Positions 5,003 to 30,859 of a stretch of 32,977 nt of DNA are shown piece by piece (within the stretch, counting starts at the first letter, position 1; every line of letters starts with the position of its first letter). The position numbers and the translations under genes are program-made. The notes below the pieces were generated by a model. It searched no databases. It was not told where the DNA came from and saw only the letters and a list, made by a program, of their open reading frames with translations. The DNA comes from Chiloscyllium plagiosum (Eukaryota), in the NCBI RefSeq assembly GCF_004010195.1, contig NC_057719.1, positions 39,381,489-39,414,465 of the forward strand. Reading direction: 5' to 3'.

Positions 5003-6440
5003 GCTATGCTTGCATCTTTGTTGGCTATGTCGAATAGTCCCTCTTTGGTACCTACACAGGTACCGTGCCCTAACTCTTCCACCATTGCATCGATGACTGC
5101 ATCAGTGCTGCATCCTGCACCCAGGCTGAACTGGAGCAATTCATCAATTTCGTCTTCAACTTCCGCCCTGCCCTTAAATTCACTTGGTCTATCTCAGACA
5201 GCTCCCTCCCCTTTCTTGACCTCTTTGTTTCCATTTTCGTCAACAGTCTACAGTTGGGCATTTACTATAAACCCACAGACTCCCTCAACTACCTGGACTA
5301 CTCCTCTCATCCACTATCCTGCAAGAACTCCATCCCATTTTCCCAATTCCTCAGCCTCTGTCGCATTTGCTCAGACGAGACATTCCACTCCCAAACATCC
5401 CAGATGTCCACCTATTTTGAAAATGCTTCTTTCCCCTCCCCCATCATGTAGACAACCCTTCACTGCACCTCCTCCATTCTCCACTCCACTACTCTAAACC
5501 ACCCTCCACCTCACCCTTGTCCTCTCCCACCACCCCACCATTCTCCACATCCAATGTATCATTCTTAAGCACTTCCGCCAACTCCAGTTAGACCCAACCA
5601 CCAAGAACATGTTTCCCTCCCACCCAACGCAACGGTTCCCTTTGCTAATCTTTGGTTTGTGTTACTCTTCCCACTAACCAACACCACCCCTGCTCCACTC
5701 CCCCTCCCCCCACCAAAATCCCTGGTACCTTCCCCGGCAACCGGAAAAGATGCAAAACATGCTGGCACACACTACCCCTTATCTCCATTCAGGGCCCCAA
5801 ATAGTTCTTCCAGATGAGACAGAGGTTCACCTGCTTCTCCTTCAATCTAGTTTTCTGTATCCGGTGCTCCCGAAGTGGTATTCTGTACATTAGGGAGACC
5901 AAACATAAACTCAGGCCATGTTTCGTCAAGCATCTCAGCCAGGCCCACAGGGGCCAGCCTGGCCTCCTGGTCACCACCCATTTTAATTCGCCCTCCCACT
6001 CCCTTTCTGACATGACCATCCTCAGCCTCTTCCATTGCCACAGTGAATCAGATCGCAAATTGGAGGAAAAACACTTCATCTTCTGCCTGGGCAGCCTATA
6101 GCTCAGAGGATTCAACATTGAGTTCTCCAATTTGAAATAACCGTCCTTCCTATCCCCCAACTCCCTTTCTAGCCCTTGCCCTTGCCCCTGCCCCTACCCC
6201 TCCCTTCCATTGTTCTGACCAACCCTTCCTTCCAGCTACCAACTGGATTAATTCCTTTCATTAACCAATCAGGTCATACTCACTATCTGTGTTCACACAT
6301 CCCTACCTCACCACTCCACCCCTCTCTGCACCCAGTACCCTTCCCACCCACTCAGTCCTGAAAAAGGGTCGCACCCGAAACGTTGACTTTTTCACCTCCT
6401 GATGCTGCCTGCTGAGTTCTTCCAGCCTCCTGCTTGTTAA
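5003..6440 (+). mobile_element. 5'-truncated, decayed Penelope-like element (RT C-terminus, GIY-YIG endonuclease, 3' hammerhead)
   Basis: ORF pieces IYYKPTDSLNYLDYSSHPLSCKNSIPFSQFL (PLE RT thumb) and NLVFCIRCSRSGILYIRETKHKLRPCFVKHL...LEEKHFIFCLGSL (GIY-YIG); frameshifted. Confidence 0.88.
6354..6388 (+). ncRNA. Minimal hammerhead ribozyme of the Penelope terminus, core mutated
   Basis: AGTC-CTGAAAA-A-GGGT-CGC-ACCC-GAAAC-GTT-GACT: stem I AGTC/GACT and stem II GGGT/ACCC; the CUGANGA core has G8>A, so it is probably inactive. Confidence 0.6.
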
Positions 6441-6887: not shown

Positions 6888-7087
6888 AGTCACAGAGATG
6901 TACAGCACAGAAAACAGACCCTTAGGTCCAACTTGTTCATGCTGAGCAGATATCCTAACCTAATCTTGTCCTATTTGCCAGCATTTGGCCCGTATCCCTC
7001 TAAATTCTTCATAATCATGTACCCATAAAGTCGCTTCTTAAATGCTATAATTGTACTAGCCTCCACCACTTCCTCTGGCAGCTCATT
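6888..7087 (-). mobile_element. CR1 LINE 3'-end fragment
   Basis: Reverse complement of the CR1 3' end at about 30655-30855. Confidence 0.8.
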
Positions 7088-8218
7088 TTGTTGAAAAATA
7101 CTCAGTCATAGAGTTGTACAGCACGGAAACAGATCTTTCGGTCCAACTCATCCATGCTGACCAGATATCCCAACCCAATCTAGTCCCACCTGCCAGCTCC
7201 CGGCACACATCCCTCCAAACCACCCCCCTCCACCGACTCATATACCCATCAAGTTGCCCTCCAAATGTTGCAACTGCACCAGCCACCACCACCTCCTCCG
7301 GCAGCCCATTCCACACAGGCATCATCCTCCGAGTGAAAAATCTGCCCCCCATGTCTCCCCACATCTTTCCCATCTCACCCCAAACCCATGCCTTCCAGTT
7401 CTGGACTCCCCAACCCCAGGGAAAAGACTCTGTCATCCATCCCATCCATGCCCCCTACAATTTCACAAACCTCCATAAGGTCACCCCTCAGCCCCCTACA
7501 TTCCAGAGAAAACAGCCCCAGCCCATTCAACCCCTCCCAATAGCCCAAATTCTCCAATCCTGGCAACATCCCTACAAACCCCCTCCAAGCTTCACAACAA
7601 CCCCCGATAGGAAGGAGACCAGAACCACACGCAATACTCCAACAGTGGCCCAACCAATGCCCTGCACAGCCGCAACACCACCCCCAAACACCGCACTCAA
7701 TACTCTGACCAACAAAGGAAAGTATACCAAACGCCTTCTTCACTATCCCATCCACCCACAACTCCACCTCCAAGTAGCCATAAACCTGCACTCCAAGGTC
7801 TCTTTGTTCAGCAACACTCCCTAGTACCTTACCATTAAGTGTATAAGTCCTGCTAAGATTTGCTTTCCCAAAATGCAGCACCTTATATTTATTTAAATTA
7901 AGCTCCATCTGCCACTTCTCAGCACATTGGCCCATCTGATCAAGATCCTGTTGTAATCTGAGGTAACCTTCTTCGCTGTCCACTACATCTCCAATTTTGG
8001 TGTCACCAGCAAACTTACTAACTTTACCTCTTATTCTCACTTCCAGATCATTTATACAAATGATGAAAAGTAGTGGACCCAGCACAGATCCTTGTGGCAC
8101 TCCACTGGTCACAGGCCTCCAGTCTGAAAAACAACTCTCTACCACTACCTCTGCCTTCTACCTTTGAGCCAATTCTGTATCCAAATAGCGAGTTCTACCT
8201 GTATTCCATGAGATCTAA

Positions 8219-8425
8219 AATGTGTTGCTGGAAAAGCGCAGCAGGTCAGGCAGCATCCAGGGAACAGGAGAATCGACGTTTCGGGCATAAGCCCTTCTTC
8301 CTGAAGAAGGGCTTATGCCCGAAACGTCGATTCTCTTGTTCCCTGGATGCTGCCTGACCTGCTGCGCTTTTCCAGCAACACATTTTCATCTCTGATCTCC
8401 AGCATCTGCAGACCTCACTTTCTCC
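8219..8425. mobile_element. Palindromic non-autonomous Penelope-derived insertion, copy 2 (opposite orientation to copy 1)
   Basis: Inverted arms 8217-8300 and 8303-8386 with one mismatch; 15-bp TSD TTCCATGAGATCTAA at 8204-8218 and 8426-8440. The equivalent CR1 site near 29740-29760 is uninterrupted. Confidence 0.9.
8299..8333 (+). ncRNA. Minimal hammerhead ribozyme core
   Basis: CTGAAGA(8301-8307)-A-GGGC-TTAT-GCCC-GAAAC-GTC; predicted cleavage after C8328; the 5' strand of stem I is mostly replaced by the inverted arm. Confidence 0.6.
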
Positions 8426-9837
8426 TTCCATGAGATCTAACCTTGCCAATCAGTCTCCCATGTGGAACCTTGTCAAACACCTTACTGAAGTCTATATAGA
8501 TCACATCCACTGCTCTACTCTCATCAATCCTCTTTGTTACTTCCTTAAAAAGCTCAATCAAGTTTGTTAGACATGATTTCCCACGCACAAAGCCATTTTG
8601 ACTATCCGTAATCAATCTTTGCCTTTCCAAATACATGTACATCCTGTCCCTCAGGATTCCCTCCAACAACTTTCCCACCGCTGACATCAGGCTTACTGGT
8701 CTGCAGTTCTCTGGCTTGTCCTTACCACCTTTCTTAAACAGTGGCACCACGTTAGCCAACCTCCAGTCTTCCAGCACCTCACCTGTGACTATCCAGGATA
8801 CAAATATCTCAGCAAGAAGCCCAGCAATCACTTCCCTAGATACCCACAGAGTTCTAGGGTACACCACATCAGGTCCTGGGAATTTATCCACTTTTATGCG
8901 TTTCGAGACATCCAACATTTCCTCCTCTGTACTCTGCACTCCACAAATTCATTGGAGTCCATTGCCAAAACACGGAATTTCAGTCAGTGTTATTTGTGAT
9001 TAGACAGAACCCCGCTCGAGTACATAATCTATACGGTTTGTTGCTACACTGTCAAACGTGTTCAGCTTTTTTTAAATCTGAAAATGAGCCCATTTGCTTT
9101 CATAAATGCATGTGAAAGATCGCATGGTGTATTATTTAGAGGACGAGAGTTCTTTATTTATTATTTATCGCCGCATAACTGGTCGTGAACTATTTGTTCA
9201 CTAATATGTTTCTATATATAACTGCAGAAACTTCATTTCAAACGGACTTCATCATCTGTCAAGTCTCTTTGAGATTGTGAAAGTCGCTATATAAATGCAG
9301 ATATCAATCCCTATCGTTTTTCTCCCGCAATTATTAACATATACTGTGATCGATACACAATCTCAAGCAGACGAAATAAAAATTGATGCGCACTCTGCAT
9401 CTTTACTGTTTATATAACTGCTGGAAACACGACCACGCTGCAGCCGATTCTTCTAGAAACTTAAACTGACCCGTTTCACCCAGCAGCAGAGACAATGGCT
9501 CTCAATTTCACAACCTCTCTCATGATGCAATCAGCTTCAACCCTGCCAACTGCTCAGCCAACCGACACACCAGTCCGCTCTCGCGAGATCACCAACGCCT
9601 ACACGCGTTCACCTCAACCAAACTTCACAACCTTGCGCGTTGGCGTCACACTGAATGACTAGCCGCTGAAACACGTACAACAAAAGCCGCAGCCACGGCT
9701 TTCCAATGAGCAAACCAGTAGCTGAGCAACAGCCAATCGTAGCACGGGCTGGAGGCGGGTTTAGCATGCTATCAAGCTAGGTTGCACCGTCACGAACTGG
9801 CGTCGATATAGAAAGGCGTTTTTTTTTTGTGGGTGGT

Positions 9838-9855
9838 GGGGCAAACGTCGTGGAG
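9838..9855 (+). other. EIF5: Putative EIF5 non-coding exon 1 (start inferred about 30 nt after the TATA-like box)
   Basis: Strong donor GAG|GTGAGC at 9855/9856; the transcription start position is an inference. Confidence 0.45.
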
Positions 9856-9990
9856 GTGAGCGTGGTGGAGGGAGTAGAGCGGGAGGGCGAGCTTGTTAAA
9901 ATAATTTAGTCGGGCCAAATTGCAAGAATTAAGGCGGCAATTGGGAACGTTTGGGATTCACGTTGACTTTGTGATTTTTCTCGCTCACAG

Positions 9991-10149
9991 ATTGCCGCAA
10001 ACGAGGGCGTCTCGCTCCACCGACGGGCTTTTTTTATTTGTTGCGCACAGAAGGAGTTCGGCGTCTCGGCACCGTTACGTGCCGTCCAGTAGTTCACCTA
10101 TATCCAAGAGTGATTAGGCTTGTGTTTATGTCTTTGTTTTGTGAAAACG
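9991..10149 (+). other. EIF5: Putative EIF5 5'UTR exon 2 carrying uAUG1
   Basis: Acceptor TTTTTCTCGCTCACAG ending 9990 (alternative acceptor ending 10050); donor ACG|GTAAGG at 10149/10150; single ATG at 10128. Confidence 0.6.
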
Positions 10150-10994
10150 GTAAGGTTCTCCGTATAAGGTAGCTAATTTAACTTGGGGTGCGGTTAGGTG
10201 GATGGGTGATAGCTGAAACGTGTTGGGAAAACTGGATGAGGGGTTTCTCAAAATGGCGCCGTGCGGCCCGGCTGGAACTGAGTGATCCCTCCCTCCCTCC
10301 CTCCATGACCGTGTGACGCAGTCTGCGCCACTTGGTCGGATGGTCCTGGCTTGTACTGATATACTATGGTGGGCCCCTCCCGAGTGTTGCAATCTCGCAA
10401 CCTTGTTTCTCCTTGAATGCCCGTCGATGGGTAGTCGCTCAGAAGTGCTCCACTGAGGTGAGTGGAATATTTTTTTCGCTGCCCTGCAAAGTGTGCATTG
10501 CGCATGGTAGTGCTGGGCAGTGACTCACGTGTTGCGGACGCTGGGTTGCTGCATCAGGCGATGACTCAGCGCTTGGCTGCCGCCTCCTTCTCAATAAACC
10601 CCCTTGTCACCAAAATGCCACCTGGCTGATCGTTTATTACTCTCGTTAGTGTTGGTTCGTGCCATTGGCTCAAGTGCATTTTTTTTTCATCTATACAACT
10701 ATAGATGAGTACTTTGTATTTGTCACAAACTTTGAATATGTGACTGAGGTGAACACTTATGTATTAAATCCATCTGTGTTAGGAGAGGTGCTTGTATTTT
10801 TAACTCTTCTTTTCCTTTCTCCTGTTTTAAGGAAACAAAGCTACATAATTTTTATTGATCTAATGTAATGATTGTAGAACACTTTATAAACTATAACTTC
10901 CAATCTGCAGTCCAAAGATGTCCCTATGCAGAGTATGAGAGAAGTAATATACCTTGTTTAATTTCTCACCCTTTATTTCTCTCTTGCACCACAG

Positions 10995-11202
10995 AGCTGT
11001 TGCGCAGCCATTGGTACCTGTGTCGGGGAAACCTAACCAACAAACGGGGGACTTGCAGCCTGAGTGGCGCAAACTTTTTCATGTCAGAGACCGAGTACAC
11101 TTGCAATTGTTTATGTCATCCATTCTTCTTCAGACAGAAGATACCAAAAAATTCCATTCAAAGATCTTTTCACTTTACTCATAAATCTAATAGTAAACCA
11201 GA
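10995..11202 (+). other. EIF5: EIF5 5'UTR portion of the first coding exon
   Basis: Polypyrimidine tract plus CAG acceptor ending 10994; closely resembles the mammalian EIF5 leader as recalled (AGCTGTTGCGCAGCCATTGGTACCTG...TTTTTCATGTCAGAGACCGAG...CAGACAGAAGATACCAAAAA). Confidence 0.8.
11113..11184 (+). promoter_or_regulatory. Short uORF (23 aa, MSSILLQTEDTKKFHSKIFSLYS) from uAUG3, same frame as EIF5
   Basis: TTT-ATG-T poor context; stop TAA at 11182-11184. Confidence 0.7.
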
Positions 11203-14200: not shown

Positions 14201-17133
14201 CTGTGGATACAGAGGCATGCTTGACACACGCCACAAACTCTGCACGTTCATTCTTAAAAATCCACCTGGTAAGTGTAGTGTTTGTTTTTCTTTACCATTT
14301 GAGTTGCAAAGCTGAAATCCAGCAGTAATTAAGATATTTACATAATGTGTTCCAGAAAATGGAGATGGTGGCTCAGCCAAGAAAGAGAAGAAAACCAAAA
14401 AGGGTAAAGACAAGGAGAATGGATCAGTACCTAATTCAGAATCATCCACCCACAATGAGTTTGATGCACCAGAAGCAGTGGTAAATCTTCACCTTGTACA
14501 TAAGAATTTGCAGAACATCCCAGACAGGCTATTTCAGCTGCTAGTTCTTGACAATTTAACAAGTTACACTCCTTATTGTTCTCCTTTCTCCTTTACTGGC
14601 TTGTTTTTTTTTCCAAATGTTTTATCCAATTTTTTTTTTGGAAGCTGATTTGAATATGCTGCTTGTGAGCAATACAGTCTGGATCCTAAACACTTCCTCA
14701 ACCAGACCTACCACTTTGGCTGCTTGGCTTGCACACAATTTTAGTTAAACTGCTTGATGTTCATAGAGTCTCTGGAGGGGGAAAAGTTAATCTATTAACC
14801 CACTTCTCCGTTAGGATGGTGAAGATGATGACGATGATTGGTGTGAAGAAACTACAGAGGAAGCCCAGAGGCGTCGAATGGGTGAAATCAGTGAGCATGC
14901 CAAAAACTTGACACTCAGTGATGATCTGGGAAAAACATTAGAGGAAAGAGTGAACTTATTCTACAACTTTGTCAAGGTATTCATTATGTCCTGCATCTTC
15001 AAATATATTGGCCCCTGAGTTTATGGCTTTGCTTCTGAAATTCAAAGTCTAACTTTCTCATGGTTTCCATTTAGAGACTTAAGTAGAGTCTATGCAGCAG
15101 AGAAACTGGCTTTTCATCCCCACTCATCCATGCTAACCAGGTTTCCTAAACTGAACTATCCCTTTTTGCCTATGTTTTGGCCCATATCCCTCAATGTTTC
15201 CTATCCATGTACCTGTCCAAATGTTTTTTAAATGCTGTGTTGTACCTGTCTCTACTATTTCCTTTATCATTCCAAATAAGCCTCGCCTTAACTCAAATAC
15301 TCCAGTCTTGGCAACATAGTAAAAAAAATTTTGCTCCCTTTTGCAGTTTAATAACATCCTGTAGCAGGTTGACCAGAACTGTATGCAGTATTCAAATTAT
15401 GGCTTTGTATAGCTGTATCATAATGACATCCCAACTCCAGGACTTGATGCTCTGACTAAAGGCAAGCATGAACAATAAGTATTTATATAGGCTGTACAGA
15501 AGTTGGGTTTAGAATCACTCTGATCTAATACCAATTATGGAAATTTGCCTTTAAGTTTGGTTCCTCTTCTCCCATGTGTGGGTGCATTAGCTATAACAAG
15601 CTTTATTGACTTCGCTTGATTTCTGAACAGAGATTATTGAAAGTCTGAAATCTTATCAACTTGCTAACTTTTGCTGTGATATCTAAAATGCAGAAAAAGA
15701 AGGAAGAGGGCATTATTGATTCTGCTGATAAAGATCTTCGATCAGAAGCTGAAAGACTGGATGTAATAGCTATGGGCCCTCTCATACTAAGTGAACTGCT
15801 TTTTGATGAGAACATACGAGATCAGATCAAGAAATATAAACGGCACTTTCTACGTGTAAGTAGTTTTTCCCTCCAACTGAACAAATCTTCAGATGCTAGA
15901 AATCTGACATGGCTGGAGAAACTCCACCAGTCTGGCAGCATCCATGGAGAGAAGGCAGATGGTGGGTCTGAAAGTTCCCTGGAATCAACCCTAACTGCTT
16001 TTGCTTCATAGGTGTTGCTGGAATGGAGTATCTCCAGAAATTCGTTTTTAAAAAACTTTAGATTAACACTGCCTTACAAACTGTTCACTTGACAGTTCTG
16101 CCATGGTAATAAAAAGGCTCAGAAGTATTTACTCGGTGGCTTTGAGTGTCTGGTGAAAATACATCGGGACCAACTGCTGCCCAGAGTTCCACATGTATTG
16201 AAGCAGCTTTATGATGCTGATCTCTTGGAAGAAGAGGTTATTCTTGCCTGGGCTGAGAAAGTAAGTTGAACAAATGTGAAAACTATTTTTGGCTGAATGT
16301 TGATATGTATTGGGTTTTTGTAAAAATTGATGGAAAAAGTTGGGGTGGATGTACTACTATGCACTGGCAATTAATGGATTGTTTATCAGTATTCTGTATT
16401 TGAAATTAAGAGCCATTGAGAATTTGGCTGAATGACATCCGTTCAATTTCAAGGGTAGTTGAGTGAAAATCTCAATTTTAAAGTTTGAGAATTCCTAGTC
16501 TGACTTTTTTGAGTTAGAGGTGACTAATTCTATGCACCTTGTTTGTTCTTAGTCAAGGTTCTGCAATCTGAAGTCTAATACTTAAAAAAAAACTAGTAGC
16601 TTAACATTGTGTATGGGTTTCAGTATTGATGTTTAGTTCTGATTTAACTAGAATTTTTATTGTATGCAAGGTATCCAAGAAGTATGTCCCCAAAGAACTT
16701 GCCAAAGAGATACATGCAAAGGCAGATCCATTTATTAAGTGGCTAAAAGAAGCTGAAGAGGAATCTGAAGAGGAAGAGGAGGAATCTGAAGAGGAGAAAG
16801 ATGTGGAGGTAAATATTTAAATTATAACTATCTTAGTTCCCTTCTAACTTATGAAGTTAGAACACTAGTGCTCCAATGTGTACTAAGTGTTGATTTCAGT
16901 TGTCAATGTACCCTTTGATCTAGTACATCTATCCAATTTTTTTTTTGGTTTTGGCAGCTCTAATTTGGAGAAATCTGGGATTTTATGCATAATGTGGGTG
17001 TGTTGCATTCATTAAACAAATCCTGTTTATTTTACAGGTGGTTTACGATAGCTCTGCAAGAGAACTGAAAGTGGAAACTCTGAAACCCATTAAGACAAAA
17101 GAGGAAGAGGATATAGATATTGATGCTATTTGA
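11203..17133 (+). CDS. EIF5: Eukaryotic translation initiation factor 5, 428 aa; join(11203..11274,11353..11434,12894..13066,14157..14268,14356..14480,14815..14976,15694..15855,16096..16260,16671..16808,17038..17133)
   Basis: All introns are GT-AG, phases are consistent, and the CDS totals 1287 nt with no internal stop. Protein begins [34 protein letters not shown] (GAP Arg15) and has the C4 zinc site CNEC/CKAC, the DWEAR motif, the W2/HEAT domain with AA-boxes, and the C-terminus DIDIDAI*. Confidence 0.97.
11353..11434 (+). CDS. EIF5: EIF5 coding exon 2
   Basis: [30 protein letters not shown] acceptor, GTAAGT donor. Confidence 0.96.
11660..12160 (-). mobile_element. CR1 LINE 3' fragment in EIF5 intron
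   Basis: Reverse complement of about 30355-30845. Confidence 0.85.
12894..13066 (+). CDS. EIF5: EIF5 coding exon 3
   Basis: (Y)[57 protein letters not shown], donor GTGAGT. Confidence 0.96.
14157..14268 (+). CDS. EIF5: EIF5 coding exon 4
   Basis: [37 protein letters not shown], donor GTAAGT. Confidence 0.96.
14356..14480 (+). CDS. EIF5: EIF5 coding exon 5 (linker)
   Basis: (E)[41 protein letters not shown], donor GTAAAT. Confidence 0.9.
14815..14976 (+). CDS. EIF5: EIF5 coding exon 6
   Basis: [54 protein letters not shown]. Confidence 0.94.
15085..15470 (-). mobile_element. Decayed CR1 LINE 3' fragment in EIF5 intron
   Basis: TTTTGGCCCATATCCCTC...GGCAACAT...ACATCCCAACTCC...AAAGGCAAGCATG match the reverse complement of the CR1 3' region. 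Confidence 0.65.
15694..15855 (+). CDS. EIF5: EIF5 coding exon 7
   Basis: [54 protein letters not shown]. Confidence 0.95.
16096..16260 (+). CDS. EIF5: EIF5 coding exon 8
   Basis: [55 protein letters not shown]. Confidence 0.95.
16671..16808 (+). CDS. EIF5: EIF5 coding exon 9
   Basis: [49 protein letters not shown] acceptor. Confidence 0.94.
17038..17133 (+). CDS. EIF5: EIF5 coding exon 10 (stop)
   Basis: [34 protein letters not shown]. Confidence 0.94.
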   Translation: MVYDSSARELKVETLKPIKTKEEEDIDIDAI

Positions 17134-19125: not shown

Positions 19126-20398
19126 TATTTCAGTTGTGCTTGTCATCTTTGTAAGTCTTTCAACTTATCCACTTAACTCCAGTATCTACTCATGGCTACA
19201 ATTCTCAATGTTTCATAAATAACTAATTTCACTAAACTACATTAGAGCTGCAGCTCAATTCTTAGTTCTTCACCTGCATTAATGAGCAGTGTTGTCAGAT
19301 GTCTGGCTACCAGGATATCCCATAGCAACCATGTTTTAGCTGCCTCAAAGTGCTGGAGAAGTTCAGTACGTTTATGAGACTCAGATTTGTAAAATGTTAC
19401 CTTCCACACAACTAAATGTTGAATTTCTCTACTTCATTTTTACTACTGTATACTCAGGTTGCATATAAAACCCATCATTGTACCTACCTCAGCAAAAATA
19501 ATGTGAGATCATGTAGTTCATCCTTTTGACCACCAAACTGCAAAGTTGTGGTGGGCTTTTATGCAGGACTGAGTACTGAGACTTGTATGTGGAATCTGTG
19601 CACCAGAATAACCAAATTTAAAAAGAGACTTCATTTGAAATGAAGTGCACATTTAGACGGAATATGGAGTGGAAATCTCCAGTCAGCAAATCATTTGAAA
19701 CTGAAAACAGATGCAGAATCTTTAGGGTGCATATCAACCAAATTTCCCAGGTGGTATCTTTTACCTTGAAGAATTCTCACTCAAATTTACTTAGTCCAGC
19801 TCCAGTCCACAGATGTAATTATAAAATGTTGATGTTCTATAGCCAATAGCACTCGTGCTGTGAACCTAAAGTGGGAAAGTTTTGGCTCCGTCTACGCCAA
19901 ACTGTATGCTAATCCCATTTTCATAGAACTTGGTCCATACTACTATTCCAGCTGTTACAACAGAAACCAGGAGTATAATGTGTGATAATAGTTATATTAT
20001 TCACGAGGTTACACAAACCTTTTGAATAACATGCATCATGATTTAGATACGTATTTCTTAGTGTCAAAAGAAAAGCTGCACAAAGGGGTCAACTTAGAGC
20101 AGTTCATTACCTTTGATCAATTAATTTGCAAGAGAATCACAGGTCTTATTAAAAAAGCTGCTTGGAGAACTGGCAAATCGTGAATACTGACTGTGGTGGC
20201 TAACCATACTTAATGTGCATTCACTTATGTAGTATAAAGTTAGGGTTGTGATAATGAGCTGAGAAAAACAGTTGGTCCATTGGGGATGGAGTGTCAAATA
20301 CCTCCTAGGAGATTTAGCTACTCAAAAGCAGTAATTTAACCTTGTTTGAAAAGTATACATTTTTGACCTCTGATCTATCTGAAATAGCGTTTAAGTGA

Positions 20399-20710
20399 GC
20401 GGCATGGTGGCACAGTGGTTAGCACTGCTGCCTCACAGCACCAGAGACCCGGGTTCAATTCCCGACTCAGGCGACTGACTGTGTGAAGTTTGCACGTTCT
20501 CCCTGTGTCTGCGTGGGTTTCCTCCGGGTGCTCCGGATTCCTCCCACAGTCCAAAAATGTGCAGGTCAGGTGAATTGGCCATGCTAAATTGCCCGTAGTG
20601 TTAGGTGAAGGGGTAAGTGTAGAGGTATGGGTGGGTTGCGCTTTGGCGGGTCGGTGTGGACTTGTTGGGCCGAAGGGCCTGTTTCCACACTGTAATGTAA
20701 TCTAATCTAA
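20399..20710 (+). mobile_element. Full-length tRNA-derived SINE, HE1/V-SINE type
   Basis: A box TGGCACAGTGG, B box GGTTCAATTCC, V-domain GTTTGCACGTTCTCCCTGTGTCTGCGTGGGTTTCCTCCGGGTGCTCCGG, CR1-like tail GGGCCGAAGGGCCTGTTTCC, (TCTAA)n end. Confidence 0.9.
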
Positions 20711-20949
20711 TGAATTTTTGAACATTTGACAATTTTGTATGCCTCTATGAAATCAGTATGCATTTCCATAGGGCATCTAGCTAAGACACCTGTTATCCTC
20801 CACCCAGGTTTCCTATCATCTACGCGGTGGCCTATTCCATAATGTCTAGATTTATGCCTCAACTTTTAACTATAAAACAATGAGCGGAAGTAAGCCATTC
20901 AACAAAGTGACTGTTCACCTGTACAATGAGATGACTGCTCTTCAGCAGT

Positions 20950-22175
20950 TATACTGGCACTATCCCCCACCTTTTCCTCCGCTACATTAATGACTGCATC
21001 GGTGTTTCCACAAGGAGCTCAAACAGGTCATCAACTTCACCCACACCTTCAACCCTGACCTCAAATTCACCTGAATCATCTCCTGAGACTTCGCTTCCCT
21101 TCCTGGACCTCTCCATCTGTTTCTCGCAACTGCCTTAACACCATGTCTATTTTAAGCCCAAACCTATCTTGACTACACTCCTTCATGCAAAAACATGATC
21201 CTATACTCCCAATTCCTCTGTAGCTGCTCCCAGGATGAGCAATTATATTCCAGGATATCCCAGATGTTCTACTTCAAGGACTGCAATTTCCCCTCCCCTG
21301 TGATCAATGATGCCCTCAATCACTTCTTCCTCCCCACACCTCTGCCTTCAAACTGCACCCCCAACTACAACAAGAACAGTGACTCCGGTCCTCATTCCAC
21401 CCACCAGGTCTCCAAATCCAACGTATCATCATCCAACATTTTCACCTCAACACCCAAAAGGATATTTCTTTCTTCACTCATATCTACTTTCCATAGGCAC
21501 CATTTCCCTCATTAGGACCATATGTTCCCCACCAACCTCTCCTCCATACTTTGGTACCTTTCCATGTGGCTGCTAAATCTTCTCTTTTACCTCCAGTCAA
21601 GACCCCAAAGAATCATTCCACGTTTGGCAGAGATTCACCTGCATTTCCGCTAACCGTTGCTCCCGCTGTGGTCTCTTCATTGGGGACACCAAGCACAAAC
21701 TCTGAGGCCACTTCAGGGAACATCTCTGGTCCACATGCTCCAATCAACCCTACCTCCTAGTTGCCAGCCATTTCAACTATCCCACTCCCACAATGACAGG
21801 TCCATCCTGGATCTCCACCATCAAAATAAGGCCACAGACAAACTGAAGGAAGAACACCTCATATTTCGCCTCAGGACCTTACAACATTATGGCCTAAGAA
21901 TTCAGCAGCTTTCAAATCTCCCTCTCCACCCCACCCCCTTGACTTGACCTGACCTAATCTTTCCATCTTCCTTCCCATCTATCCGCTTCACTGTTCCCAC
22001 TGACCAATCACATCTTACCGACATCCACCTATTGCTATCACACATACCTTTCCCCCAACCCCACCCTCATATATATTTCTCACTCTCCTTACCCCTCCCC
22101 AATCCTGATGAAGAGTCCTGCCTGAAATGTTGACTCTCCTGCTGTTCGACTTGCTGTGTTTTCTCCAGCTCCACA
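20950..22175 (+). mobile_element. Heavily decayed Penelope-like element with degenerate hammerhead at 22101-22136
   Basis: Collinear with 5003-6440; KLKEEHLIFRLRTLQHYGL (GIY-YIG end); CTGATGA 22105-22111 ... GAAATGTTGACT. Confidence 0.8.
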
Positions 22176-24991: not shown

Positions 24992-26447
24992 GGGTAAAAA
25001 CAATGACTGCAGATGCTGGAAACCAGATTCTGGATTAGTGGCGCTGGAAGAGCACAGCAGTTCAGGCAGCATCCGAGGAGCAGTAAAATCGACGTTTCGG
25101 GCAAAAGCCCTTCATCAGGAATAAAGGCAGAGAGCCTGAAGGGTGGAGAGATCAACTAGCGGAGGGTGGGAGTGGGGAGAAAGTAGCATAGAGTACAATA
25201 GGTGAGTGGGGGAGGGGATGAAGGTGATAGGTCAGGGAGGAGGGTGGAGTGGATAGGTGGAAAAGAAGATAGGCAGGTAGGACAAGTCATGGGGACTGTG
25301 CTGAGCTGGAAGTCTGAAACTAGGGTGAGGTGGGAGAAGGGTAAATGAGGAAACTGTTGAAGTCCACATTGATGCCCTGGGGTTGAAGTGCTCCGAGGCG
25401 CAAGATGAGGCATTCTTCCTCCAGGCATCTGGTGGTGAGGGAGCGGCGGTGAAGGAGGCCCAGGACCTCCATGTCCTCGGCAGAGAGGGAGGGGGAGTTG
25501 AAATGTTGGGCCACAGGGCGGTGTGGTTGATTGGTGCGGGTGTCCCGGAGATGATCCCTAAAGCGCTCTGCTAGGAGGCGTCCAGTCTCCCCAATGTAGA
25601 GGAGACTGCATCGGGAGCAACGGATACAATAAATGATATTGGTGGATGAGCAGGTAAAACTTTGATGGATATGGAAGGCTCCTTTAGGGCCTTGGATAGA
25701 TGTGAGGGAGGAGGTATGGGCGCAGGTTTTGCAATTCCTGCGGTGGCAGGGGAAGGTCCCAGGATGGGAGGGTGAAAACAGGTCCCAGGTAATCACGGAG
25801 GGAACGGTCTTTGCGGAAAGGAGTGGGGAGGGAAATATATCCCTGGTGGTGGGGTCTTTTTGGAGGCGGCGGAAATGTCGGTGGATGATTTGGTTTATGC
25901 GAAGATTGGTTGGGTGGAAGGTGAGCACCAGGGGCATTCTGTCCTTGTTACGGTTGGAGGGGTGGGGTCTGAGGGCAGAGGTGCGGGATGTGGACAGATG
26001 CGTTGGAGGGCATCTTTAACCATGTGGGAAGGGAAATTGCGGTCTCTAAAGAAGGAGGCCATCTAGTGTGTTCTGTGGTGGAACTGGTCCTCCTGGGAGC
26101 AGATACGGCGGAGGAATTGGGAATACGGGATGGCATTTTTGCAAGAGGTAGGGTGGGAAGAGGTGTAATCTAGGTAGCTGTGGGAGTCGGTGGGTTTGTA
26201 AAAAATGTCAGTGTCAAGTCGGTCGTCATTAATGGAGATGGAGAGGTCCATGAAGGGGAGGGAGGTGTCAGAGATGGTCCAGGCAAATTTAAGGTCAGGG
26301 TGAAATGTGTTGGTGAAGTCGATGAATCGCTCAACCTCCTCGCAGGAGCACGATGTGGCGCCAATGCAGTCATCAATGTAGTGGAGGAAGAGGTGGGGAG
26401 TGGTGCCGGTGTAATTACGGAAGATCGACTGTTTTACGTAGCCAACA
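24992..26447 (-). mobile_element. 5'-truncated Penelope-like element (RT YIDD motif, GIY-YIG endonuclease, hammerhead-bearing 3' end) with TSD
   Basis: FLHYIDDCIG...DIFYKPTDSHSYLDY (RT); CHRRNCKTCAH...NIIYCIRCSRCSLLYIGETGRLLAERFRDHL (GIY-YIG); 13-bp TSD AATTTCAATAACA at 24979-24991 and 26448-26460. Confidence 0.93.
25085..25123 (-). ncRNA. Minimal type I hammerhead ribozyme with intact core
   Basis: Minus strand ATTC-CTGATGA-A-GGGC-TTTT-GCCC-GAAAC-GTC-GATTTT; predicted cleavage between 25091 and 25090. Confidence 0.75.
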
Positions 26448-26739
26448 AATTTCAATAACACTTTTACCATCTTCAGCAGAATTCTACCAACCTCAGCCAC
26501 AGTTTACCAACTTCAGTGAAAACCATCCAATTTCAATATCCCTCTGCCAAACTCACTAAGTGTTGAAAAATTGTTGTAAATGAACACAATAAACAGCTAT
26601 TTCTACTATTGTTGGCAGAATTGTTGCTCAACATCAACAATTAGAAATAAATTGTGGATTTATTCAACAGAAAAAGTATTTTGCTGGATTATCCTGACAT
26701 TGAGAACCTTTGATTTGTTAGAAGGAATTTTACCTAAAA

Positions 26740-29562: not shown

Positions 29563-30859
29563 AAGGACTGATTAGGGATAGTCAACATGGCTTTGTGCTG
29601 GGAAATCGTGTCTCACAAACTTGATTGAGTTTTTTGAGGAAGTAACAAAGAGGATTGATGAGGGCAGAGCGGTAGATGTGATCTATATGGACTTCAGTAA
29701 GGCATTCGACAAGGTTCCCCATGGGAGACTGATTAGCAAGGTTGGATCTCACAGAATACAGGGAGAACTAGCCATTTGGATACAGAACTGGCTCAAAGGT
29801 AGAAGACAGAAGGTGGTGGTGGAGGATTGTTTTTCAGACTGGAGGCCTGTGACCAGTGGAGTACCACAAGGATCGGTGCTGAGTCCTCTATTTTTTGTCA
29901 TTTACATAAATGATTCGGATGCGAGCATAAGGCGTACAATTTGTAGATGACACCAAAATTGGAGGTGTAGTGGACAGCAAAGAGGGTTACCTCAGATTAC
30001 AACAGGATCTGGACCAGTTGGGCCAATGGGCTGAGAAGTGGCAGATGGAGTTTAATTCAGATAACTGCAAGGTGCTGCATTTTGGGAAAGCAAATCTTAG
30101 CAGGACTTATACACTTAATCGTAAGATCCTAGGTAGTATTGCTGAACAAAGAGACCTTGGAGTGCAGGTTCATAGCTCCTTGAAAGTGGAGTCGCAGGTA
30201 GATAGGATAGTGAAGAAGGCATTTGGTATGCTTTCCTCTATTGGTCAGAGTATTGAGTACAGGAATTGGGAAGTCATGTTACAGCTGTACAGGATATTGG
30301 TTCGGCCACTGTTGGAATTGTATGCAATTCTGGTCTCCTTCCTATCGGAAAGATGGTTGGAAACTTGAAAGGGTTCAGAAAAGATTTACAAGGATGTTGC
30401 CAGGGTTGGAGGATTTGAGCTATAGAGAGAGAGGCTGAACAGGCTGGGTCTGTTTTCCCTGGAGCGTCGGAGGTTGAGAGGTGACCTTATAGAGATTTAC
30501 AAAATTATGAGGGGCATGGATAGATTAAATGGACAATGTCTTTTCCCTGGGATGGGGGAGTCCAGAACTAGAGGGCATAGGTTTAGGGTGAGAGGGGAAA
30601 GATATAAAAGAGACCTACGGGGCAACTTTTTCACAGAGAGTGGTACATGTAAGGAATGAGCTGCCAGAGGAAGTGGTGGAATATGGTACATTTCAACATT
30701 TAAAAGACATTTGGATGGGTATATGAATAGGAAAGGATTGGAGGGATATGGGCCAGGTGCTGGCAGGTGGGACTAGATTGGGTTGGGATATCTGGTCGGC
30801 ATGGACGGGTTGTACCGAAGGGTCTGTTTCCATGCTGTACATCTCTATGACTCTATGAC
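29563..30859 (+). mobile_element. 5'-truncated CR1 LINE (RT pseudogene plus 3' UTR)
   Basis: DVIYMDFSKAFDKVPH, SGVPQGSVL, LERVQKRFTRM, RGDLIE; frameshifts; tail (CTCTATGA)2. Confidence 0.93.

Follow-up and report, generated by a model that had tools for sequence, protein, structure and literature searches.

The window analysed here (the whole stretch of 32,977 nucleotides from Chiloscyllium plagiosum) contains a LINE copy, hereafter Q, in which an internal tract is densely substituted from A to G on the element's sense strand. The question raised by this locus is how so one-sided a tract came to be written into a genome. Q has a CR1-like structure, with 5' truncation, a conserved 3' tail and a short tandem terminal repeat, and we take its family to be CR1, a label carried over from an earlier reading that fits the usual form of such tails. 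Pfam RVT_1 matches (non-LTR reverse transcriptase ORF) were found in Q at 7378-8157 and 8418-8948, and also in two sister copies. The features of the locus are collected in Table 1.

Table 1. Parts of the hypermutated copy Q and its sister copy in the window.
Feature	Position	Strand	Basis or counts
Q: CR1-type LINE copy, 5'-truncated (C-terminal ORF2 part with RT domain, 3' UTR, short terminal repeat)	7104-8920	-	5' end approximate
Hypermutated tract in Q: A>G on element sense strand (T>C on +), 62/144 A	7208-7779	-	59-sister alignment and independent contigs
Q 3' tail, unedited: predicted stem-loop and terminal repeat	7104-7207	-	0/15 A changed in 7100-7194
Q part 5' of tract, unedited	7780-8203	-	A>G 3/106 in 7787-8200
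Later insertion in Q: near-perfect 84-bp inverted repeat, not hypermutated	8218-8425	.	14-bp duplication 8204-8217, 8426-8439
Q 5' remainder, background divergence	8440-8920	-	A>G 11/142, T>C 8/127 versus one natural copy (8426-8920)
Sister copy, inverted, ~22 kb from Q, unedited	29563-30859	+	A>G 2/292, T>C 2/285; comparator

Several other elements were observed in the window. An older CR1 3' piece at 6888-7087 on the minus strand lies directly behind the tail of Q in the same orientation and is unedited (A>G 4/45). Penelope-like fragments occur at 25031-26503 and at about 5017-6420, and a GIY-YIG domain was matched in 25320-26012 (Pfam E 4.5e-5). The palindromic insertion (208 bp), which was put into Q later, differs from a sister at 1719-1927 by 7 mixed changes in 209 nt (97% identity), and the element is young; we take its centre to resemble the minimal hammerhead motif of Penelope-like elements, and Rfam gave no match at gathering score for it. 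A CpG island at 9001-11000 (observed/expected 1.06 and 0.75) lies about 100-1000 bp from the 5' end of Q, and an exon at 15685-15858 on the forward strand matches eIF5 residues 246-303 (E 2e-22); together they probably mark the start and one coding part of an eIF5 gene on the forward strand, the island being its promoter and the match an exon.

Hypermutation of copy Q

Each substitution was scored relative to the majority base of its column in an alignment with 59 sister copies, which were the best scored matches to Q and to the window's sister copy, and only columns with at least 80% agreement were used. Between 7195 and 7786, 62 of 144 A (43%) were read as G, whereas T>C was found at 1 of 152 positions, G>A at 8 of 197 and C>T at 9 of 69 (Fisher p = 5e-22 for A>G versus T>C). 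Outside the tract, A>G was found at 3 of 121 A in all (p = 2e-16 for inside versus outside), and the changed sites span about 570 nt with both edges sharp. Over the same columns the sister copies had a mean A>G of 1.6%, the highest being 8/147 (n = 59). The 16 transversions in the tract are somewhat above the range of the sisters (0-14), and G>A is to be compared with 3.6% in the sisters, so the clusters of sense-strand G>A left by APOBEC-type editing are not seen in Q. The original prediction had claimed a dense one-sided tract with one sharp edge, and both of its examples were exact: read on the minus strand, 6 of 12 A of the sister at 30167-30212 are G at 7741-7786, and 7834-7880 is identical to 30073-30119 over 47 nt including 15 A. 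The spectrum is strongly asymmetric.

Most of the G variants in the tract are present in 0-2 of the 59 copies, and outside Q nothing scored came closer to the tract than 79% identity (best 40 of 13,550 candidates scored). The proposal of a G-rich subfamily was therefore rejected, and Q appears to have founded no subfamily visible to this search. Nine of the 59 copies (among L002-L060) share six diagnostic bases with Q at columns 8074-7939, all of them 5' of the tract.

The frequency of change in Q depended on the 5' neighbour, being 24/34 (0.71) after T, 19/35 (0.54) after A, 7/24 (0.29) after C and 12/51 (0.24) after G, and a 5' G was depleted (12/48 versus 49/91, p = 0.001). Of the contexts originally said to be favoured, TA and AA were indeed preferred, and CA was hardly above GA. 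When eight sense-edited copies were pooled (A>G 319/722, 44%; T>C 11/638; A>T 8; A>C 4), the rates were 117/170 (0.69) after T, 114/182 (0.63) after A, 36/115 (0.31) after C and 52/243 (0.21) after G, with a 5'-G depletion of p = 2e-20. The triplets most edited were TAC, TAG and AAG and the least edited was GAC; the 3' neighbour had at most a small effect, with rates of 0.48 before G, 0.45 before C and before A, and 0.38 before T, in line with the G>C~A>U expected of ADAR. ADARs are general in vertebrates. Human ADAR1 and ADAR2 acting on long duplex have a 5' preference of U>A>C>G, as the relevant passages and Table 3 of one study have it (PMC3113232), and the order in Q and in the pooled copies is the same, which amounts to an ADAR signature. 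This signature makes an ADAR the probable enzyme.

Editing at CA sites creates CpGs, and the original prediction had held that some of these had since decayed to TG. The counts bear this out: in the eight tracts CA had become CG at 23 sites and TG at 9, whereas it had become TA at only 3 sites and was unchanged at 75 (p = 7e-4). The excess of C>T where the A had been edited indicates that CpGs created by editing have since decayed.

Age and recurrence of the tracts

The edited letters are present in independent contigs (contigs rather than raw reads). Contigs from 4 of 24 listed sequencing runs were compared, and no single contig spans the whole tract. Under organism label A, a contig of run X1 covers 7478-7725 with 0 differences and 22 edited sites, and contigs of run X2, from another study, cover 7502-7676 and 7735-7805 with 0 differences and 17 and 6 edited sites; X1 and X2 represent two studies, either of which might be related to the source of the assembly. 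Under label B, contigs of X5 match 7181-7417 with 15 differing letters and 7461-7687 with 13, and under label C a contig of X9 matches 7264-7417 with 6; these three intervals contain 25, 23 and 17 edits, respectively. As 7 of the differences listed for X5 at 7181-7417 are at non-edited sites, at least 17 of the 25 edits there are common with Q, and at least 11 of the 17 are common in X9. Between the flanking contigs of labels B and C and the window there are 10 mismatched letters per 250-270 or so. Edits common to labels A, B and C imply that both the insertion and the edits predate the split of these lineages, and the tract is old germline sequence.

Q is one of a series. A search of the genome (3.56 Gb, in an assembly fragmented into 101,977 contigs) for other A>G-clustered LINE copies, as originally suggested, yielded 12 clear loci and 1 weak one beyond Q. 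L064 and L108 were found among matches to edited query sequences; a pattern requiring three G at TAG sites had 6 matches, all of them hypermutated (L121-L126, one of which is L064); a four-site sense pattern matched only Q and L064; a two-site sense pattern had 7 matches, of which Q and L180 were hypermutated and 5 were at background; and L186 and the weak, noisy L187 were found by further patterns. None of 41 unselected copies was hypermutated, and over 201 alignments the cluster score showed a gap between 45 and 10. The edited tracts are 170-690 nt long with ends that differ between copies, and edited copies share 0-3 non-A>G changes per pair, which together indicate separate events. A degenerate 29-letter pattern from the 3' part of Q's family has 24,774 exact matches in the genome; taking 6 of 24,774 and correcting for the chance that all three sites are edited gives a crude frequency at that position of about 1 copy in 2,000. 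A hyper-edited insertion is therefore a rare but recurrent outcome for this family, at very roughly that frequency.

Two antisense control patterns were also applied. Where two T>C were required, none of 6 matches was hypermutated, suggesting strict specificity for the sense strand; where three were required, 3 of 3 were hypermutated (T>C 41/135 in L182, 22/68 in L183 and 63/108 in L184), and this overturned it. The claim of sense-strand editing thus stands for Q and fails genome-wide, and both strands of a duplex can get fixed in the genome. The 5' neighbours T, A, C and G gave 25/36, 24/51, 10/48 and 3/20 in L182 and L183 together; in the antisense arm of locus L190, which includes L184, a 5' G was not depleted (13/19), and in the three antisense copies pooled the depletion was not significant (16/39, p = 0.17). 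Inspection by eye places a retroposon tail downstream of each of L182, L183 and L184, on the strand that carries the edits. At L182 the piece is followed by a SINE tail, the piece and SINE lying at one point of an older CR1, and at L183 about 20 nt resembling a CR1 terminus lie downstream, its flanks giving no contiguity pair. The antisense-edited CR1 pieces at L182 (1347-2205) and L183 (1422-1720) are without a 3' end of their own. An inverted piece produced by twin priming would carry A>G rather than T>C, which makes antisense RNA the probable template of the antisense copies.

Among the copies with a tail, the spared part comes down to roughly the last 30 nt. Stringent LINEs recognise the 3' tail, according to the passages of PMC3747384 that treat it, and such recognition may be the reason for the spared tails; L180 limits the spared part to those last 30 nt or so, since it is edited to about 30 nt from its end, inside a predicted inner hairpin. 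The idea that an intact 3' stem-loop is needed is weakened by this, and the tail folds did not clearly surpass those of shuffled sequences (z -0.07 to -1.79), the fold of Q's tail being no better than shuffles (z -0.21). In L180 (1045-1716, minus strand) edited sequence also lies on both sides of an unedited piece, and one segment occurs in both states side by side, a mosaic that could have arisen from template switching or later repair. That editing shortens insertions was not supported by 5 edited versus 41 unselected copies (p = 0.08), a comparison in which local alignment ends are rough and L125, whose 5' end is in an N run, was left out.

A probable edited fold-back and possible routes into the genome

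At L190 the duplex partner is part of the locus. Its order is an antisense CR1 arm, a 720-nt spacer of other sequence, a sense arm and then a further copy in sense orientation that is longer, the antisense arm being split by a later CR1 insert that is unedited (9/292). The antisense arm has T>C at 63/108 and 32/64 and the sense arms have A>G at 91/217 and 124/290, such that all three arms carry A>G on one and the same strand. In the long sense copy 5 of 126 A are edited in bins 19400-19999 and 122 of 266 in bins 20100-21099, and pairing with the antisense arm begins at 20076. Editing thus begins where pairing begins, and the edits are bounded by the inverted repeat. The sense arms have 65 edits in common and 20 and 16 private ones, more than independent copies share. 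L190 4810-10000 and L216 (G000:C28, about 32,356,000-32,362,450) are a single 6.4-kb insertion, a block that ends in a CR1 tail and lies at one point of an older repeat; its flanks were contiguous in 2 of 38 loci matched, other copies of the older repeat, with gaps of -2 and -8. No second copy of the spacer, and so no source locus, was found (best 40 of 129 candidates scored). L190 looks as a retrotransposed fold-back transcript should; it is the clearest fossil of the process, and it shows a duplex in cis. The single-copy spacer and the undepleted 5' G of its antisense arm count against this reading.

The explanation that we consider very probable for Q is that ADAR hyper-edited double-stranded CR1 RNA, which was then retrotransposed. 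CR1 RNA would have paired over about 570 nt with antisense CR1 sequence, the partner probably being either carried in inverted orientation by one and the same read-through transcript or supplied in trans as antisense RNA. ADAR would have converted about 43% of the duplex adenosines to inosine. Reverse transcription by the CR1 enzyme would have started from the unedited 3' tail, with inosine being taken for G, and the resulting copy would have been inserted into germline DNA. Q would then be a dead-end copy, passed to related lineages and ageing normally, including the decay of CpGs made by editing. The double-stranded, hyper-edited and retrotransposed template put forward in the original prediction is supported by these results, with a duplex partner seen at L190 and not at Q. 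None of the four refuting conditions named in that prediction was borne out: the G variants belong to no subfamily, the spectrum is one-sided, a 5' G is depleted, and independent contigs carry the edited letters. A search of the window and of 20 kb upstream, about 8 kb of it being N, yielded no partner corresponding to the tract, none was found within 5 kb of most other edited copies, and the sense strand contains no long self-duplex (z +1.17 for the unedited sister). The inverted sister in the window is larger in extent than the tract, and its ends do not match the tract ends. As Q is a 5'-truncated insert, the partner would be expected to have been left at the source locus, and its absence carries little weight for or against. 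Also counting against the explanation are the weak effect of the 3' neighbour, the slightly raised number of other changes in the tract of Q and the lack of significant 5'-G depletion in the antisense copies.

An improbable alternative is that Q was inserted unedited and that the tract, like some others, was rewritten in place: a local transcript from the neighbouring promoter would have been ADAR-edited and reverse transcribed, and the cDNA would have recombined back to replace the locus. Q does lie just upstream of the CpG island of the probable eIF5 gene, where divergent transcription would be expected to read its sense strand, an internal tract that is sharp at both ends is compatible with conversion, and the spacer of L190 is single-copy (best 40 of 129 candidates scored). 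Against this, the L190 block including the spacer is one insertion in an older repeat, the nearby inverted copies at Q and L108 are unedited and do not match the tract ends, and at L182 and L183 the edited strand is the strand with the downstream retroposon tail. For a template switch, conversion or subfamily switch at the edge of Q, no diagnostic positions were found inside the tract. In-place rewriting, if true, would be a heritable route from RNA editing to the genome in the vertebrate germline without a new insertion.

It is less probable still that the deamination took place in DNA, ADAR or another adenine deaminase having acted on one strand while it was part of an RNA:DNA hybrid or folded as a DNA hairpin, either at integration or later. 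The same context signature would be expected, and ADARs can deaminate deoxyadenosine in model RNA:DNA hybrids, as described in the relevant passages of PMC12925331. However, the edits at L190 do not run beyond the intramolecular inverted repeat and the rest of the strand is spared, which argues against an RNA:DNA hybrid because a hybrid with a transcript would not spare it, and the near-perfect 84-bp palindrome inside Q is unedited. Hypoxanthine in DNA is also normally repaired.

Error-prone synthesis, by a polymerase eta patch or by a reverse transcriptase under unbalanced dNTP pools, has a slightly smaller chance again. Polymerase eta prefers WA contexts, which overlap the T/A 5' preference of the tracts, but its clusters contain substantial A>T and A>C, are of low density and are confined to WA. 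The pooled tracts, with 44% of A changed and only 8 A>T and 4 A>C among 722, are far from the error rates and spectra of such synthesis; GA and CA sites were also changed (0.21-0.31), and the edges follow the inverted repeat at L190. Thus, although polymerase eta favours A>G in the part of PMC13716900 that concerns it, this explanation is largely refuted.

Least credible of all, and refuted by the independent contigs, is an assembly or sequencing artefact, or a G-rich subfamily: the assembly is fragmented and no single compared contig spans the tract, but there are exact matches in two studies and diverged orthologous matches under labels B and C, the CpGs made by editing have decayed, and no close copy of the tract was found (best 40 of 13,550 candidates scored).

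Relation to known editing systems

The edited copies give direct genomic evidence that LINE RNA bound for insertion can be double-stranded, hyper-edited in the germline and still copied. They are a countable fossil record of past ADAR activity and sequence preference, and they also preserve traces of the RNAs, antisense or read-through, with which LINEs had paired, and of the copying of antisense strands and flanking sequence by the reverse transcriptase. Hyper-edited copies appear older and more G-rich than they really are. Full-text literature searches, mostly outside subscription papers, turned up no description of ADAR tracts in LINE copies of the germline, which is not proof of novelty. 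The genome screens for edited retrotransposons looked for G>A, as described in their relevant sections (PMC2873906, PMC4866542, PMC3880073).

One known system counts against an ADAR-edited LINE. In the restriction of human L1 by ADAR1, as here, ADAR meets LINE RNA, but unlike here no editing was found: the sections of PMC5224506 on the L1 reporter describe none by ADAR1 in more than 2.5 kb of RNA and an editing-independent restriction, and leave rare editing open.

APOBEC-edited vertebrate retrotransposons resemble the present loci in being rare, heavily hypermutated copies made during retrotransposition, and their frequency, 0.26% of lizard L1, is of a similar order, as far as the relevant parts of the sources go (PMC4866542, PMC3880073). 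That system produces G>A on cDNA, whereas the change here is A>G on RNA. In the passages concerned, PMC4866542 screened LTR elements and termed other clustered types negligible, and PMC3880073 found G>A editing in neither CR1 nor L2 of the lizard.

A closer likeness is found in the avian retroviruses RAV-1 and avian leukosis virus, in which ADAR-type A-to-G hypermutation has been described (Felder 1994, Hajjar and Linial 1995, as cited in PMC12925331 and PMC8586724). According to those citations, A was changed to G at about half of its positions where a reverse-transcribed RNA was double-stranded, and the change was recorded in DNA, as here; unlike there, the element here is a non-LTR retrotransposon, and the copies are germline-fixed, common to lineages and present at many loci, with both duplex strands recorded. 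The A-to-I hyper-editing of inverted repeats in transcripts shares its chemistry, context and substrate with the tracts, as set out in the pertinent parts of PMC2873906 and PMC3113232. Such editing is normally seen in RNA against an unedited genome, whereas here the genome itself holds the edited form.
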